Shown: positions 18,001 to 27,000 of the stretch, piece after piece | Layout: the number at the start of each line of letters is the position of its first letter | How positions within the stretch are numbered: position 1 is the first letter of the stretch | NCBI GenBank assembly: GCA_043803405.1 | Contig: JAZDKB010000004.1 | Span: 1-64,000 of the forward strand | Source: Spirochaetota bacterium | GTDB lineage: Bacteria > Spirochaetota > UBA4802 > JAFGDQ01 | Direction: 5' to 3' | Length of the DNA stretch: 64,000 bases | Program-made: the position numbers

Positions 18001-21000
18001 GCCTGTTATATCAAGAATGAGTATTGCGTGGACTGCAGGGCTGGCATCCGGCACAAGAAAGGGGAGCATGGCCGGCGCGCTGGTTAAGCATACAGGATAC
18101 AGGGAGATTATTATTGCATCAGCAATTACGGCTTTCCTGAGCATTGCGTTTATCAGACAATTAACCTTAGTTGTCATTCCGGCAGTAATTCTTTTTGCAG
18201 TAATTTGCGAAAGATACGCCGAGAAAAAAATCGGCTGCATCTCGGGGGACATCATAGGCGCGGTTATCGAGATGACGGAAATCACAGTGCTTTTTGCACT
18301 ATTTATTTATGAATTGTTTTAACACAGGTGTATTACCGATATGCTGCCTGTACATATTTAATTTATATGATATCAAGGTGATACGGTATGTTTGAAATCG
18401 TACTGATACGTCATGCCGAGACAGACAATAACACTATGCACAAATTCTCAGGTATAACCGATGTGGGCCTGAACGATAATGGAAGGCAGCAGGCATTAAA
18501 ACTGGCTGATGCTCTTAAAGATGAAATTATCGATCACATATTTTCCAGCGATATGCGCAGATGCGTTGAGACTGGCAACGGCCTCAGGTGCGCGAACGAA
18601 AGAATCTTCACAAAAGAACTCCGTGAGATGAATTTCGGCAGATGGGAAAACCTTACTTACAAAGAGATCAAAGAAAGGTATCCTGACGATATTGAAATGT
18701 GGGAGCGCGACTGGACGGATTACGAAATCCCGGAAGGCGAAAGCTTTACCCGAATGAGCGCAAGAGTGATAAAAGAATTTGAGGATATTGTAAAAGTTAA
18801 AAGCAACGGAGCAAAAAAAATTGCCGTTGTGTCGCACAGCGGATGCATAAGAACGATACTCGGCCATTACATAATCGGATCAATAAAAGACAGCTGGAGA
18901 TTCCGCGTTGAGAATGCCGCTGTTACGAGACTCTCTGTAGATAAAGGATACTATTTCTTAAAATCCCTTAATGAAAAATAATATTCCGGTATTTATTTAT
19001 GGCCAGGTACATTTGGGTTTATTGAATTGTCATGCGGATGTAAAATTATATTACAATATATTATTGAAAAAAAGTCAGTGTTGACGGTATTGTTTGTTGA
19101 TTATATCAGGAGTAATTAACCATGTTCAAATTTATTAGGGAAAAAATATTTATAGACGATGTGGTTTGCCCATGGTGGCTCGCATATACATTTGATAACC
19201 GCATTCGAAAGTTTTTTCATAATCCGGATAAAATGTTCAGTAAATATATCAGGAAAGGGATGACAGTGCTGGATATCGGTTGCGGGATGGGCTACTTCTC
19301 TATTGGGATGGCTGCGTTTGTAGGCGACAAAGGCAAAGTCATTGCTCTCGATATTCAGGAAAAAATGCTTGAGGTAATGAAGAAACGGGCTGAAAAAGCC
19401 GGCATGCTGAAGCGAATAACTCCGCATCTAAGCACAAAGAAAGATCTTAAACTAAAGAAAAAAGTCGATTTTGCATTAAGTTTCTGGATGGTGCACGAAG
19501 TACCGGACATAAATATTTTTTTAAAGAATGTTTACAATACATTAAATAAACATGGAAGATATTTTATCGCTGAGCCTAAAATGCACACGTCTGAAAAATA
19601 TTTCAGCAATCTCGAAAGCCTTTGCCTGGCGACAGGTTTTCGCATAATAGACCGTCCGGAAGTATCATTAAGCCGTGCTGTGCTTCTGGAGAGATAAATT
19701 AATACAGATACAGCGGATGAGAGTCCGGGTTCTTGCCGAAGAATGTGACATCATCAACAATCTTTATTTTTTCCCCGCGGAGAAGCGCGTATAGCGTGCG
19801 TTCTATGCCAATGCCTCCGCCGAAAGTATCCGGGAAAAGTTGCCCGCCGTCCCGGCCTTTCATTGAAGCAAACTGAAGAAACGGCCCATACCCTCCAAGG
19901 TCGTTGATATTTGCGATATTACCGTCTTCTATTATCGGCCGCGCCGGAAGGACCTTGTTGTCAAGTATCCTTTCAACTATCGGCTCATAAAGCCATTCTC
20001 TTATGGCGCCTGATAATATTTCTTTTGCAGTCGACTGCTTCCCGGTTTTTGCATCAATGCTTTTTGCAAGCATATCATAGTTAAATACATTCTGCGATTG
20101 CACTTTTAGCGGGTCGGCTTTTTTCCCTTCAGTGAATAAGTACGGATAGACCAGGTCATAGTTTTCCCTTAGAAGGCCGGTAATCCAGAAGAACTGCGAG
20201 TCTGTAGACTGTCCTGCTTTTTCTTCGTGACTTTTCTGGCCGTATTTTTTTACGCATTCGTCCTTTTGAAAGCTCGGGAAAGGTGTTTTGGGTATTTCTA
20301 TCACAATGCCAAGATCCTTCAAATTCTGTGAGTTGATTTTATTGATCTCCTCACATGCATAAACGAGCATCCTTTCAAAAAAGTTTTTTATCTTTGTCAT
20401 GTCTTCGTTAAGGATGTCGGTTACATATTTTACTTTGCTATAATATTCGTCAAGAGTGACGTTCCTGTTGCGCTTAAGTTCAATATCCATCTGAGAAAAA
20501 TCGGCGAGGTATTTCCCGCGCTGGGCGCCGGTGGGGCTTTCTATCTCGAGCCTGATGTTTGGCGAATCTACGAATATGCCTTTTATGCGCGGGTTTGAGC
20601 ATGCAAGAAATTTGCTGTAAATCATGCTGTGCGTTGTAAGGTATGTGTGTCCTTTGTAGTCGATGGACGGCGTGTGTTCAATGTCGTGAGCAAGCGGGTC
20701 TGTTATTATGCTGAGCATTACTTTTTCTAAATTAAACAGGCCTTCTTTAACAAGGAACTGGTTCATGGAATTAACAAAGGTTGTCCGGATTGCCATCGCA
20801 TTGTAAAGATCATCCGATATCCATTTGCCGGAGTAATTTGATTTTATGTAGTCTTCGAAGGTTTCCCCGCCTTCATTTATTGCAGCCTGAAATCTGTAAA
20901 GGCTTTCGCCGATTATTTTAATTTTATCTTCCATATATTTATCCCGATAGATTGCTTTTTGTCCGGCACATAATATTTTTCTTCTGGAATAATGTCAAAT

Positions 21001-24000: not shown

Positions 24001-27000
24001 CGAGTACAGGGATTATCTTTCCATATTTAAATACGGAATGCCGCCTCACGGCGGGCTCGGCATGGGGCTGGAGCGGCTTACTATGAAGATATGCAATCTG
24101 AAAAATATTCGCGAGGCGTCATTGTTCCCGAGGGATATTAACAGGATTTCACCGTAGGTAAATATTGATTGACGGATTTATTTTTAATGATTATTAAAAA
24201 TGATGCGATTCGAATGGGATAAATAAAAAGCAAAAGATAATCATACGAAACATCGTATATCTTTTGATGAAGCAGTTACAGTGTTTTATGATCCGTTATC
24301 GGCAACTTTTGATGATCCGGATCATTCAATTAATGAGCATAGATGGATAATTATAGGTTTTTCATCCCGTGGACGCCTGGTTGTAGTATCCTTTACCGAA
24401 AGAAGGGAAATAATTCGAATTATAAGCGCCCGTCCTGCGACGGCGCACGAAAGGAAACGACATGAAAATTAAAGCAAAAAGGAATGTTGATGATTTACGG
24501 CCGGAGTATAATTTTGATTATTCAAAAGCTGTTCGCGGTAAATACGTAAAACGTTTACTGGATGAAGGGGCAAATGTTGTTGTGCTTGATCCGGATATAG
24601 CTAAGGCTTTCGGCAACTCGGCTGATGTAAATGACGCATTAAGATTGCTGCTTGATATTACAAGTTCAACACGCAGGATAACAATTCGTTCAAATATAAG
24701 CCATAATAAACGTCGTCGTTAATTAATATTTTGTCAGAGCTTGTACAAAATATAAAGCTGATCATGAAGAACTCCTGAACAATATATTATGCTGAAAAAA
24801 CCAAAGATTAACATAGACAACCTGATCGAGCTTGCTTCGTTTGAAGTAAAGCCCGAAGAAAAACAGCAGTTCGTGAAAGAACTGGACGATTTTCTGGAAT
24901 ACGCCCGCGTAATAAACGAGGCATCTGTCGCGGATGTAAATCCCGCAAGCCATGCTGTGGACAGGAAAGCATATATGCGCGACGATACAAACAGCGCGTG
25001 GGATAAGCTTGACCTTTTACTCGGGAACGGGCCTGCTCTTCAGGGTACAAGCTACCTGGTGCCGCCGCAGGGAAGGAGCGGCGCAGGCACGGCTTCAGAA
25101 GAGAACGGGAACAGGGCCGCGGTTGCGGAAGCGGATTATGAGGCAGTGATCGGGCTCGAAGTGCACGCCCAGTTAAGAACGCGCACTAAGCTGTTCTGCG
25201 CATGTTCAACGCAGTTCGGCCGGGAGCCGAACGCGAACACGTGCCCCGTGTGCTCCGGGCATCCGGGCGTCCTGCCTGTGCTTAACAAAGAAGCAGTCAG
25301 CATGGCGATTCTCGCAGGGCTTGCGGCAGGATCAACTATAAACAAGCGTTCAGTCTTTGCGCGCAAGAATTATTTTTATCCCGACCTGCCGAAAGGCTAC
25401 CAGATATCCCAGTTCGAGGAACCCATCTGCTCCGGAGGGTTTATCGAGATAGAGATAAACGGTTCTGTAAAGAAAGTAAGGCTTAACCGCATACACATGG
25501 AAGAAGACGCCGGCAAGATGGTACACGTCGGTGCGCCCGGTATATGGGGATCGAAGGCGAGCGCCGTAGACTTTAACCGTTCGAGTGTGCCTCTCATAGA
25601 GATCGTAACAGAGCCGGACATGTCATCGGCCGAAGAAGCGCGCGAATACGTTGTAATGCTGCGCGCCATGCTTGTGTCGCTCGGGATATGCGACGGCAAC
25701 ATGGAAGAGGGAAGCCTGCGCTGCGACGCGAACGTTTCAATACGCCCAAAGGGAGCAAAGAAGCTCGGAACAAAGGTCGAGATTAAAAACATGAACTCGT
25801 TTAAGGCAATCGAAAGAGCTCTCGATTATGAAATCACACGGCTAAATAAAATGGTGAAGGCAGGCGCAAGAATAGGGCAGGAGACAAGGCTGTGGGACGA
25901 AAGCGGCCAGAAAACATATTCCATGAGGAGCAAAGAAGAATCGCACGACTACAGGTATTTCCCAGATCCCGATCTTTTGCCCATTGAACTAAGCGACGAA
26001 TGGATAGAAAAAGTCCGGGGAAAACTGACACATTCTCCGCTTACAAGAAAGCGTAAATATATTTCGGAATATTCTTTCTCAGGGAAGGAAGCGCGCCTCT
26101 TTATGATAAATCCTTCGTATGCAGATTTCTTTGAGGCTGTCCTTGCCGGTTATGATAATCCAAGGGCATTAGCGAACCTGTTTTTTACTGAGATATTGTC
26201 TTTAACCGGCAACATAGAAGAACTCAATATTAAGCCAGACGATCTGGCCATGCTTCTTAAAAAGATAGATTCCGGCGAGATCAGCGGTAAGATAGCAAAG
26301 AATGTTATCAAGAAAGCATTCTCTTCCGGTAAAGGACTGATCCAGATCATCGGTGAAGAGAACATAAAGCAGGAAACCGATCCTAAAGTAATTGAAGATA
26401 TAATAGATAAAATTATCGCCGACAATCAGTCCCAGGTCAATGATTACCGGAGCGGCAAGACAAAGATTTTCGGATTCTTTGTGGGCGAAGCAATGAAGGC
26501 AGCAAAAGGAAAGGCGAGCCCCGCGCTGGTAAATGAGATTTTGAAGAAGAAGCTCGGTTGATATATTTTGCCGTTCGCAGTTATTTCAATTTTTTTACTT
26601 CCGGTTTTTTGTCCTTTAATACAAATGCCGGTTTTATTGATTCGATTTTGCCAGCCAGGTCTTCCTTAAATATCCTGTAAACAAGAACAGCTGAATAATT
26701 TTCCTTATAATATTCGAAAGCGATCTGTCCGTATCGAAGGAATTCCCGCATCTCCTGTATCAGGTTCTTTTTTATTTCGTCGGAATTCTGAATGTCATTC
26801 GCATTCTTAATGTTTGATAGTTTGTAATTATAATTAAGATTATACTTTATAAGGTTAGTGATTACTTTGTTGTCCATCTCCGCTTTTGCGTTTTTAAGCG
26901 CACTCTCACGCGAAGCTACGAGCCCTCTAGCCTCTTTATCCGGCATCCCTGTAATGATCACCTGGTAATGATCCCTGTCGAGAAAACCTTCGGTAGTGTA

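Follow-up and report, generated by a model that had tools for sequence, protein, structure and literature searches.

The Asn-transamidosome of Thermus thermophilus is a particle held together by tRNA, and tRNA-dependent asparagine supply is exemplified by Thermus, Deinococcus and Bdellovibrio; in Clostridium acetobutylicum, the aspS2-gatCAB operon is under T-box control. The Thermus complex (PDB 3kfu) combines a non-discriminating AspRS (ND-AspRS2), GatCAB and tRNA(Asn), the four proteins being separate. According to the available text of PMC4206432, Thermus and Deinococcus possess AsnRS, GlnRS and a bacterial AspRS along with an extra archaeal-type AspRS, and Thermus is without AsnA and AsnB. 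In clostridial operons, the gene for the archaeal-type AspRS lies directly beside gatCAB, again with four separate genes (aspS2-gatC-gatA-gatB, with ORFs of 439, 99, 486 and 479 aa in Clostridium sp. OS1-26, and similarly in Ruminococcus and Lachnospiraceae MAGs).

Covalent links between an AspRS and an amidotransferase are not wholly unprecedented. The curated NCBIfam equivalog NF009460 (PRK12820), ‘bifunctional AspRS/amidotransferase subunit C', is a natural link of this kind, between a bacterial-type AspRS and GatC, an architecture read from the family name, the 723-position profile and its match to residues 519-1086 (the bacterial-type AspRS half) of the protein P0386; a literature search for this family found no paper. 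Fusions of GatB with AspRS are represented by P0386 (1090 aa, bacterial-type AspRS with GAD) and P0377 (955 aa, archaeal-type AspRS, from a cluster of 135 members), in each of which the N-terminus of AspRS is tethered to the C-terminus of the amidotransferase subunit and each half passes the GatB or AspRS equivalog cut-off. One named fragment in the P0377 cluster comes from a MAG of Ruminococcus sp.; P0386 carries the name Aminipila sp. In the engineered Gln transamidosome of Thermotoga maritima (PDB 3al0, chain C), a linker connects GatC to the non-discriminating GluRS. Two amidotransferase subunits share a chain in a Mycobacterium smegmatis laboratory mutant, where a gatC-gatA fusion polypeptide, with no synthetase involved, results in mistranslation (as the available text of PMC7541841 has it).

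In the window analyzed here, a stretch of 64,000 nucleotides from a Spirochaetota genome, the four Asn-tRNA-making proteins are welded into two chains, GatA-AspRS and GatC-GatB, a natural and conserved hard-wiring of otherwise separate parts (Table 1). Judging from the sequence comparisons, the locus probably encodes a covalently tethered two-polypeptide Asn-transamidosome, with tRNA-dependent asparagine supply as its likeliest job. The protein modules are the same four as in Thermus, and the genome likewise encodes AsnRS, GlnRS and a bacterial AspRS next to the archaeal-type one but, unlike Thermus, also AsnB and an AsnA-like protein. The locus differs from the clostridial operons in gene order, from NF009460 in that GatA is placed N-terminal to an archaeal-type AspRS, from 3al0 in that the latter is man-made, belongs to the Gln system and uses GatC instead of GatA, and from P0377 and P0386 in that the partner there is GatB. 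P0377 has an AspRS of only 40% identity, placed outside the clade of GatA fusions, which indicates an independent fusion event; together, NF009460, P0377/P0386 and the engineered 3al0 are independent precedents that support the tethering reading. The initial annotation had presented the complex as known in non-covalent form and as hard-wired here; the hard-wiring stands, but the contrast is tempered by NF009460 and the GatB-AspRS fusions.

Table 1. Features of the locus and related genes of the same genome (window positions, unless preceded by a contig name)
Feature	Position	Strand	Details
AsnA-like protein P0003 (g00212)	19699..20934	-	411 aa, class II core without anticodon-binding domain
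Promoter-like site of AsnA-like gene, TTGACA-17-TATTAT	20998..20970	-	promoter scan, 11/12 matches
Perfect palindrome TTACAATACTGTAA	21018-21031		just upstream of promoter-like site
GatA-AspRS fusion ORF	21266-24157	+	963 aa, uninterrupted single frame
GatA (glutaminase) domain	21266..22705	+	residues 1-480; TIGR00132, 2df4 alignment
Linker GatA/AspRS	22706..22870	+	residues 481-535, bounded by solved GatA and AspRS2 chains
Archaeal-type ND-AspRS domain (predicted) and stop codon	22871..24157	+	residues 536-963; NF003483, TIGR00458
Insertion between fused genes	24281..24722	+	BrnT-type toxin ORF 24281-24472 overlapping 86-aa ORF 24462-24722
GatC-GatB fusion ORF	24789-26561	+	590 aa
GatC domain	24789..25064	+	residues 1-92; Pfam GatC, S. 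aureus GatC alignment
Gly/Ala/Ser-rich linker	25065..25133	+	residues 93-115, between GatC and GatB alignments
GatB domain: catalytic cradle and helical/YqeY tRNA-binding tail	25134..26561	+	residues 116-590
Bacterial AspRS	C4:101421-103076
AsnRS	C9:204660-206027		648.9 bits
GlnRS	C9:98639-100219		785.5 bits
AsnB	C18:208949-210640		506.4 bits

Both fused genes had been called in the initial annotation, the first as a single frame that joins a complete GatA to a complete aspartate--tRNA(Asn) ligase, and the reanalysis recovered the same coordinates and domains. In the first protein, Pfam detects an Amidase domain (residues 25-468), an OB anticodon domain (550-623) and a class II core (644-957), with neither a GAD domain in the AspRS half nor a GatC domain anywhere in the chain. 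Both halves are complete and pass their NCBIfam equivalog cut-offs: 591.5 bits against 481.1 for gatA TIGR00132 (residues 14-476), 549.5 against 353 for the aspartate--tRNA(Asn) ligase NF003483 (535-963) and 435.9 against 368.4 for TIGR00458. The GatA half aligns with S. aureus GatA (2df4) across residues 9-480 (500 bits), and the best solved relative of the AspRS half is T. thermophilus AspRS2 (1n9w, 3kfu; 355 bits), with residues 536-963 matching 2-422 over the full length. The catalytic residues are conserved among the 68 fused homologues: in GatA, K81 and S180 in 67 each and S156 in all; in AspRS, QSPQ (715-718), R740 of motif 2 and R937 of motif 3 in all. Where T. kodakarensis has W26 and K85, which we take to be the positions that set non-discrimination in AspRS, the fused protein has H557 and P609, the same residues as in Thermus AspRS2; each is found in 60 and substituted in 8 of the 68.

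In the 590-aa protein, Pfam identifies GatB_N (120-407) and the YqeY domain (446-589), the GatB equivalog NF004014 is passed with 649 bits against 414, and Aquifex GatB (3h0l) aligns across residues 116-587 (483 bits). The GatC part (21-91) exceeds the Pfam GatC cut-off (33.4 bits against 23) and aligns with residues 3-92 of the 100 of S. aureus GatC (E 9e-6); its score below the TIGR00135 cut-off (38.1 against 47.1 bits) counts against the assignment. Apart from the fused copies, this genome (94% complete) contains no other gatA, no other gatB and no gatC-like match at E <= 1. The two fused genes, which are 27-31 nt apart in three relatives (G002, G006 and G076), are separated here by an insertion that is not a transamidosome part: a BrnT-type toxin ORF, N-terminally short (BrnT_toxin PF04365, 62.3 bits against 34.5, profile positions 23-77 of 77), and an 86-aa ORF that matched no family and is probably the antitoxin.

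The linker between GatA and AspRS, initially given as ~80 residues, which is the distance between the Pfam domain envelopes, shrinks to ~55 when measured against the solved GatA and AspRS2 chains. Its sequence is variable in the 68 proteins; nevertheless, its length stays within 48-62 residues (mode 55) and two motifs are conserved, P483 and Y-S/T-K-E-x-I-K-x-I-S-x-S-Y at ~515-527. The AF2 model has helices at 485-507 and 516-527, with pLDDT <50 for 497-513; the whole-chain model is mediocre (pLDDT 76, pTM 0.55) and carries no reliable information on domain placement. Public gene calls include separate AspRS proteins of 418-442 aa that begin within the linker (calls of 430-442 aa) or just past it (P0244 on the same contig; P0245, P0246 and P0248 in relatives), all nested in the fused clade. 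These records would fit a fusion that is only genetic, where an internal start in the linker also or mainly yields AspRS2 on its own, GatA works in truncated or processed form within an ordinary GatCAB, and the tether has no mechanistic role, even though the long ORF is real. Such an arrangement is unlikely: the first residue of P0244 is an Ile codon read as Met, which looks like a forced start of the pipeline, and the first Met after GatA, M545, already lies within the AspRS alignment. Furthermore, the frame is open through the poorly conserved linker, with no stop or frameshift, in all 67 other clusters and, combined with the constrained length and the motifs, this pattern is unlike that of an intergenic spacer.

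As for the function of the tethered complex, the bacterial AspRS, AsnRS, GlnRS and AsnB that the genome had been said to retain were all located, and no bacterial AsnA turned up in this inventory. Across the 122 genomes of the order, GlnRS is found in 114, AsnRS in 108 and AsnB in only 33; with the two synthetases near-universal and AsnB sparse, the job of the fused system is most likely tRNA-dependent asparagine supply rather than Gln-tRNA formation, so that this order-wide inventory strengthens the earlier suggestion of a role in asparagine synthesis rather than translation. In two families (f5 and f6), GatCAB is present and, except for one AsnB, no AsnB or AsnA-like gene was found, so that GatCAB looks like the asparagine route order-wide. 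That AsnRS, AsnB and the AsnA-like gene make the pathway redundant in this genome counts against this assignment. Bacterial GatCAB is commonly dual-specific for Gln and Asn, and a U1-A72 pair can be drawn for each of the two tRNA(Gln) genes, so that the fused amidotransferase could instead serve mainly Gln-tRNA(Gln), or Gln and Asn both; this is quite improbable given the presence of GlnRS here and, at E <= 1e-60, in 22 of the 23 fusion genomes (in one of these 22 as a fragment that scores under the family cut-off) and in most of the order, and given that the synthetase welded to GatA is AspRS, not GluRS. The tRNA(Asn) has the U1-A72 pair, a requirement stated in the available text of PMC4206432; in tRNA(Asp), the pair is G1-C72 and the D-loop is longer by one base. 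The stretch occurs in none of the sequencing runs recorded as RNA.

The redundancy of the route would also agree with service of Asn-tRNA(Asn), or of the AspRS half, in a process other than translation, such as envelope or lipid aminoacylation or regulation, all the more so because an AspRS fusion, the fungal ErdS, can divert Asp-tRNA (according to the available text of PMC13219428). We regard this as highly improbable: no transferase domain is found in or beside the locus, which is flanked by cobalamin genes, a methyltransferase and a TPR protein, and the conserved neighbours asnS, asnB and the AsnA-like gene suggest asparagine supply.

The fused GatA-AspRS occurs in 67 database clusters besides the query. 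The earlier count of 22 among the 122 genomes of the order was reproduced as uninterrupted frames without stops, with one more split across two contigs; in the phylum, 35 of the 401 sampled genomes have the fusion, 13 of these being additional ones outside the order. An assembly or frameshift artefact that joined adjacent genes, conceivable in a draft of 54 contigs, was refuted and retains a negligible probability, as the initial annotation had held, because the same architecture recurs in the 67 other clusters, whose assemblies come from NCBI, JGI, ENA and Logan and include megabase contigs, and in fusion genomes inside and outside the order.

The two fusions go together, as had been claimed: GatC is fused to GatB in all 21 judgeable fusion genomes, whereas the GatB matches of 81 other genomes never extend to the GatC part. 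Completeness of the halves, their conserved catalytic residues, the lack of free gatA, gatB and gatC, this strict co-occurrence and the likeness to AspRS2 jointly support a two-polypeptide Asn-transamidosome. In the phylogenetic trees, the fused GatA domains (25 rows) separate from the GatA of the order itself (20 rows) with branch support of 100, the fused AspRS domains form one clade (support 100), and the two trees have sub-groupings in common; on this evidence, all the fused proteins belong to one old clade of single origin. GatA and GatB are both unmatched with these queries in G003 (same genus), G024, G025 and G092 (completeness at least 84%), which suggests that the system is dispensable or replaceable.

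In the proposed mechanism, chain 1 would consist of the GatA glutaminase connected through the ~55-residue linker to the N-terminus of the archaeal-type non-discriminating AspRS, and chain 2 of GatC and GatB. The AspRS domain would dimerise, as class II synthetases do, and then aspartylate tRNA(Asn), and GatC-GatB would dock on the tethered GatA in the manner of a conventional GatCAB. From the AspRS site, the acceptor end of Asp-tRNA(Asn) would move to that of GatB, to be phosphorylated and amidated there by ammonia channelled from GatA, so that Asn-tRNA(Asn) exits and the mischarged intermediate is never released. The tether may set a ratio of one amidotransferase per AspRS monomer and substitute for tRNA-dependent or helper-protein-dependent assembly, and the fused system would operate in parallel with AsnB and the neighbouring AsnA-like enzyme.

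This neighbour, a class II core without an anticodon-binding domain as originally described (confirmed with Pfam; tRNA-synt_2, 38.2 bits), is a divergent archaeal-type AsnA-like protein, an assignment that formerly rested on a partial match and now extends to a fold search, shared motifs and synteny with asnS. It scores 128.7 bits with ‘asparagine synthetase A' NF005054 (NCBIfam), under the cut-off of 309, and its best sequence matches among solved structures are Pyrococcus AsnA 1nnh and 3p8t (E 3.5e-14). In a Foldseek search with the AF2 model, archaeal AsnA chains take ranks 1, 2, 5, 8 and 9 (3reu, 3rl6, 3rex, 3p8t and 1nnh; TM 0.68-0.71 on target, 21-24% identity), and archaeal AspRS 1b8a and 3nel take ranks 3-4 with similar E-values and 16% identity. 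Like archaeal AsnA (Pyrococcus 3p8t, 3reu, 1nnh), it lacks the anticodon domain and contains the motifs T-H-S-M-I..K and S-P-N-I-R-L-E but, unlike them, it is bacterial, spans 411 rather than 294 aa and has long inserted helices. In the order, 34 of 122 genomes encode homologues with 70-84% identity, and in most cases the gene immediately precedes asnS. In databases, the protein is named only ‘hypothetical' or ‘amino acid--tRNA ligase-related'. No Rfam element was detected at the locus. The palindrome upstream of its promoter-like site might have a regulatory role; it has one exact copy in the window against 0.02 expected, and the looser pattern TTACA-N4-TGTAA occurs six times genome-wide. Of five intergenic regions aligned within the same family, four keep the block of promoter and palindrome, and one, that of G006, deviates.

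The locus is real and conserved and probably encodes a two-chain Asn-transamidosome in which GatA is joined to AspRS and GatC to GatB. The coordinates and the Pfam layout of the three frames described in the initial annotation (963, 590 and 411 amino acids) were reproduced in the window, and both tethers follow directly from the open reading frames.

Features of the locus and their positions in the window
Feature	Position	Strand	Content
Upstream genes	17015-19697		cobalamin salvage CobU and CobS, histidine-phosphatase-family protein, SAM methyltransferase; unrelated to the finding
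411-aa ORF (AsnA-like)	19699-20934	-	class II core fold without anticodon domain
Palindrome TTACAATACTGTAA	21018-21031		perfect; directly ahead of the -35 box in a promoter-like site of the AsnA-like gene
963-aa ORF (GatA-AspRS)	21266-24157	+	Pfam Amidase 25-468, OB anticodon-binding 550-623, class II D/K/N core 644-957
BrnT-type ribonuclease toxin ORF and overlapping 86-aa ORF	24281-24722		PF04365, 62.3 bits
590-aa ORF (GatC-GatB)	24789-26561	+	GatC 21-91, then complete GatB
Downstream genes			173-aa ORF without family, 799-aa TPR protein; unrelated to the finding

Both halves of the 963-aa chain are complete, as had been claimed. The amidase half reaches 591.5 bits with the GatA equivalog TIGR00132 (cut-off 481.1; profile positions 3-462 of 466), and the synthetase half is an archaeal-type aspartate--tRNA(Asn) ligase by NF003483 (549.5 bits versus 353) and TIGR00458 (435.9 versus 368.4). 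The Pfam search detected in this protein neither the GAD insertion (PF02938) nor a GatC domain, the latter being located on the 590-aa chain. In an alignment of 68 full-length fused proteins, comprising the query and representatives of 67 clusters from the database, each with 930 or more amino acids, K81 (within VAVKDN) is conserved in 67 sequences, S156 (within GGSSGGS) in all 68 and S180 in 67; the respective blocks align with S. aureus GatA, and we take these residues to be the Ser-cisSer-Lys triad of the amidase signature. The aspartate-binding QSPQ loop of the AspRS half (Q715-Q718) is present in 68 of 68 proteins, as are the motif 2 arginine R740 and the motif 3 arginine R937. The nearest solved relative of this half is T. 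thermophilus AspRS2, the non-discriminating synthetase in the transamidosome structure (1n9w, 3kfu; 355 bits over the whole length), followed by T. kodakarensis AspRS. The columns of W26 and K85 of the T. kodakarensis enzyme are occupied by histidine and proline in the window's protein (H557 and P609), as they are in Thermus AspRS2, and each of the two residues is found in 60 of the 68 fused homologs, the chief substitutes being tyrosine (in 8) and alanine (in 4). We assume that these are the anticodon-domain residues that relax discrimination; in the work of Feng et al. 2003, W26H and K85P reportedly make a discriminating AspRS non-discriminating.

The initial annotation had described a single frame with a linker of about 80 residues; the single frame stands, but the linker shrinks to about 55 residues when measured against solved chains, because in these alignments GatA ends near residue 480 and AspRS starts near residue 536. 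The linker is weakly conserved in sequence (mean top-residue frequency of 0.32-0.50 per 20-residue block) and nearly gap-free, with 48-62 residues and a mode of 55 across the 68 fused proteins. Its conserved features are P483 and the stretch Y-S/T-K-E-x-I-K-x-I-S-x-S-Y immediately ahead of the AspRS domain, a motif that may resemble the helix with which the N-terminal extensions of class IIb synthetases in eukaryotes bind tRNA. The AlphaFold2 (AF2) model of the 963-aa chain (57 homologs; pLDDT 76, pTM 0.55) predicts linker helices at 485-507 and 516-527 and leaves the relative placement of the domains unfixed, being too uncertain for geometry. A 442-aa database record of AspRS from the same contig (P0244, approximately 22829-24157) starts within the linker, with an isoleucine codon read as methionine. 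Three further records called free AspRS (418-437 amino acids, ‘aspartate--tRNA(Asn) ligase') nest within the clade of fused proteins in a FastTree tree. Judging from these sequence records, P0244 and the three free forms seem to be annotation splits, with the pipelines splitting or half-naming the fusion.

On the second chain, GatB is likewise complete (NF004014, 649 bits versus a cut-off of 414; GatB_N 120-407, GatB_Yqey 446-589). The GatC part scores 33.4 bits with PF02686 (cut-off 23) and 38.1 bits with TIGR00135 (cut-off 47.1), and aligns with residues 3-92 of the 100 residues of S. aureus GatC (E 9e-6). The database protein P0361 (65% identity), one of the best 150 matches among 1.84 billion cluster representatives, covers residues 2-589. 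The proposal that the two fusions go together holds across the order: alignments to the 590-aa query begin at residue 1-6 in 21 genomes, each of them a carrier of the GatA-AspRS fusion, and begin no earlier than residue 94 in the 81 non-fusion genomes that have a GatB match. Outside this count are two fusion genomes, one with a run of N after AspRS (G089) and one with the gene cut by a contig end (G097). That same run of N accounts for the 1116-aa frame of G089 and for its ‘missing' GatC, and this frame is not a triple fusion.

The two fused genes are separated by 27-31 nt in three related genomes (G002, G006 and G076) and by 631 nt in the window, because the BrnT-type toxin ORF and its small partner ORF intervene. 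This pair is an insertion between gatA-aspS and gatC-gatB, which in the relatives have a gap of about 30 nt. The toxin ORF is short at its N-terminus, because the match spans profile positions 23-77 of 77; no family was found for the overlapping 86-aa ORF, which is probably the antitoxin.

The fused architecture recurs in the databases, as the initial annotation had stated. A word-based search retrieves 67 other clusters of 935-1011 amino acids with the same three Pfam domains and 44-83% identity, mostly from Spirochaetota MAGs; Ca. Uabimicrobium amorphum contributes one, and a Chrysiogenales MAG contributes a partial protein. Those that are named carry only the name ‘GatA'. A scan of contigs with the whole protein gave no further fused relatives among the matches listed, with ordinary GatA dominating via the pattern TNMDEFAM, and apparent matches to residues 3-963 in Clostridia actually correspond to separate aspS2, gatC, gatA and gatB genes. 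Within the order, the earlier count of 22 of 122 genomes with an uninterrupted match to residues 1-963 was recovered, and in one more (G001), the gene is split over two contig ends. These 23 fusion genomes belong to family f1 (5 of 7) and, within family f7, to two genera. In almost every other genome of the order, GatA is of the ordinary kind, with about 485 amino acids and 47-53% identity, and for these ordinary-GatA genomes, no archaeal-type AspRS match was listed. In an even sample of the phylum, 35 of 401 genomes carry an AspRS of the fusion class (58-100% identity), 32 of them in frames of 940-1116 amino acids and three in frames of 471, 600 and 782 amino acids that were taken for contig ends; 16 of the 35 carriers come from outside the order (families f9, f23 and f38). 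In another 39 genomes of this sample, the only archaeal-type AspRS is a stand-alone one with at most 50% identity.

In quick midpoint-rooted FastTree trees of subsamples, a branch with a support of 100 sets apart all 25 fused GatA domains that were included (of 68), and the 20 sequences of the order's own GatA form a separate clade, also with a support of 100, that groups with the 23 GatA sequences from other phyla. The fused AspRS domains make up one clade (support 100), the sub-groups of which mirror the GatA tree. These trees support a single fusion event; they neither place it within the native GatA lineage of the order nor point to a donor. The third-position GC content of the fused genes (0.573 for GatA, 0.574 for GatC, 0.553 for GatB and 0.531 for AspRS) puts them at the 94th-99th percentile of the genome (long-ORF mean of 0.411, standard deviation of 0.076), with the linker being average (0.418); this elevation could reflect high expression or foreign origin.

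The assembly (3.98 Mb in 54 contigs, 94% complete) contains no gatA, gatB or gatC other than the fused genes. It keeps the other routes that had been noted, namely, AsnRS (648.9 bits), a bacterial-type AspRS of 595 amino acids, GlnRS (785.5 bits) and AsnB (506.4 bits), and no bacterial-type AsnA was found in the genome. The only tRNA(Asn) gene has the end pair U1-A72. In tRNA(Asp), the end pair is G1-C72 and the D-loop is longer by one base, the latter being a feature that we take to be an antideterminant. According to an excerpt from PMC4206432, the two-step Asn-tRNA route requires tRNA(Asn) with U1-A72. The genome encodes all components of an Asn-transamidosome, namely, a predicted non-discriminating AspRS, GatCAB and tRNA(Asn) with U1-A72. 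Among the other tRNA genes, tRNA(Glu) (C43:60108-60181 of this genome) has the end pair G1-U72 as drawn by ARAGORN, and a tRNA-SeC gene is present as well. An Rfam scan of positions 19000-27500 at E <= 0.1 was empty, with no T-box or other known leader, and the sequencing runs listed with the stretch include no RNA-type run, only two DNA-type ones (6-7% of words).

Across the order, GlnRS is found in 114 of the 122 genomes, AsnRS in 108 and AsnB in 33; GatCAB is therefore dispensable for the formation of Gln-tRNA order-wide and, in most members, looks like an asparagine route. Such a pattern is described for Bdellovibrio, Thermus and Deinococcus in the excerpt from PMC4206432. In the 23 fusion genomes, a GlnRS match at E <= 1e-60 was detected in 22 (the match in G001 is an N-terminal fragment under the cut-off), AsnRS in 21, AsnB in 13 and the AsnA-like gene in 19, so that the fused transamidosome is often redundant. 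With these queries, GatA and GatB were not found in four genomes that are 84-97% complete (G003, from the same genus, and G024, G025 and G092), all of which have the AsnA-like gene and asnS; AsnB was not found in the latter three, which are draft genomes.

The AsnA-like protein encoded divergently from gatA-aspS misses the equivalog for archaeal asparagine synthetase A (NF005054; 128.7 bits in two stretches versus a cut-off of 309). By sequence, the solved structures that it matches best are those of Pyrococcus AsnA (1nnh and 3p8t; E 3.5e-14 and 6.4e-13, respectively), with which it shares the motifs T-H-S-M-I..K and S-P-N-I-R-L-E. When the AF2 model of this protein (pLDDT 76, pTM 0.81) was compared with the PDB using Foldseek, archaeal AsnA occupied ranks 1, 2, 5, 8 and 9 (TM 0.68-0.71 on the target, 21-24% identity, E 2e-12 to 5e-11) and archaeal AspRS ranks 3 and 4 (16% identity, E 2.9e-12 and 4.5e-12), with the other AspRS and AsnRS fold matches at 12-17% identity. 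All 43 homologs compared keep the arginines of motif 2 (R128) and motif 3 (R379), and the nearest cluster in a language-model atlas is ‘putative Asparagine synthetase A'. The family includes more than 1000 database relatives, of which the best 120, with 405-434 amino acids and 66-84% identity to the query, go by the names ‘hypothetical' or ‘amino acid--tRNA ligase-related'.

Homologs of the AsnA-like protein are present in 34 of the 122 genomes of the order, in most cases as the gene that immediately precedes asnS in the same orientation (by coordinates; for example, in G099, G019, G088 and G024), and in family f1, the gene adjoins gatA-aspS divergently. One genome (G076) has a four-gene cluster of asnS, the AsnA-like gene, gatA-aspS and gatC-gatB, and in another (G006), asnB is adjacent to the cluster. 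The gene content of G024, G025 and G092 fits an asparagine synthetase role for this protein weakly, because these are drafts that partly represent one genus. The palindrome TTACAATACTGTAA ahead of the gene may be an operator; of 5 related intergenic regions, 4 retain it.

A transamidosome is a textbook example of how substrate channelling prevents a tRNA that is mischarged on purpose from entering translation, and the required tightness of the coupling between synthetase and amidotransferase is still argued from a few non-covalent complexes, those of Thermus, Pseudomonas, Helicobacter and Thermotoga. The closest known system, the Asn-transamidosome of Thermus, is non-covalent, in contrast to the two fused chains encoded in the window; in Clostridia, the same genes form a four-gene operon and are separate. 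The order aspS-gatC-gatA-gatB, as four adjacent separate genes, was seen in Clostridium sp. OS1-26 and in Lachnospiraceae and Ruminococcus MAGs (L063, L088, L120). An AspRS-GatC link is already curated as NCBIfam NF009460 (‘bifunctional aspartyl-tRNA synthetase/aspartyl/glutamyl-tRNA amidotransferase subunit C'), and chain C of PDB 3al0 is an engineered tether, GatC-linker-GluRS. The search of cluster representatives also revealed two types of GatB-AspRS fusions. The first, P0377 (955 amino acids, archaeal-type AspRS), belongs to a 90% cluster of 135 members, of which 14 of the 15 listed are 955 amino acids long and lie on 3-49 contigs each; this is an independent event because its AspRS is only 40% identical to that of the window and falls outside the fused clade. 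The second, P0386 (1090 amino acids), has a bacterial-type AspRS with GAD; its cluster has six members, two of them full-length. Thus, of the initial claim of a hard-wired Asn-transamidosome, the two-chain architecture stands, but covalent coupling of AspRS is not wholly new, given NF009460 and the GatB-AspRS fusions. A full-text search that covered few subscription journals found no paper on natural GatA-AspRS, GatC-GatB, GatB-AspRS or AspRS-GatC fusions, and the locus is a new architectural variant of the known transamidosome, unreported in the literature searched and mislabelled in databases.

The two-chain enzyme is apparently functional; from the encoded proteins, we infer its activity, its specificity, its stoichiometry and what the tether would bring, and the two chains would associate and channel Asp-tRNA(Asn). 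A broader reading, which we consider possible yet short of probable, is that covalent transamidosomes recur, AspRS and an amidotransferase subunit having become fused on three or four separate occasions or more (in Spirochaetota and a few further phyla as GatA-AspRS with GatC-GatB, and elsewhere as GatB with archaeal-type AspRS, GatB with bacterial-type AspRS, and AspRS-GatC). Under the same tentative reading, the two chains of the spirochaete version would obligatorily form an (alpha-beta)2 particle, with no need of tRNA for assembly. Its cassette would have spread by replacing native gatCAB and would be part of an ‘asparagine island' that also includes asnS, asnB and AsnA of a new bacterial branch, and the AsnA-like enzyme alone could replace the tRNA-dependent route where GatCAB was lost.

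A natural, conserved two-chain version would provide a stable particle for structural work that needs no engineered linkers, as well as a direct test of the benefit of tethering. The fusion also serves as a ‘Rosetta-stone' confirmation that the C-terminus of GatA neighbors the N-terminus of AspRS in the working complex. Because pipelines split the fusions or label them merely as ‘GatA', too few cases of tRNA-dependent asparagine synthesis are called in Spirochaetota, and the AsnA-like family, with its mostly ‘hypothetical' relatives, is a cheap target for function assignment.

Amidotransferase subunits are joined to other partners as well. Three metagenomic proteins of 589-591 amino acids (P0096, P0100 and P0114) contain the Amidase and GatC Pfam domains and are GatC-GatA fusions, and GatB is linked to an asparaginase-type, GatD-like domain in P0390 (817 amino acids), to tRNA_bind in P0383 (701 amino acids) and to peptidase MA in P0479 (798 amino acids); the latter three, which include singleton clusters, could be artefacts.
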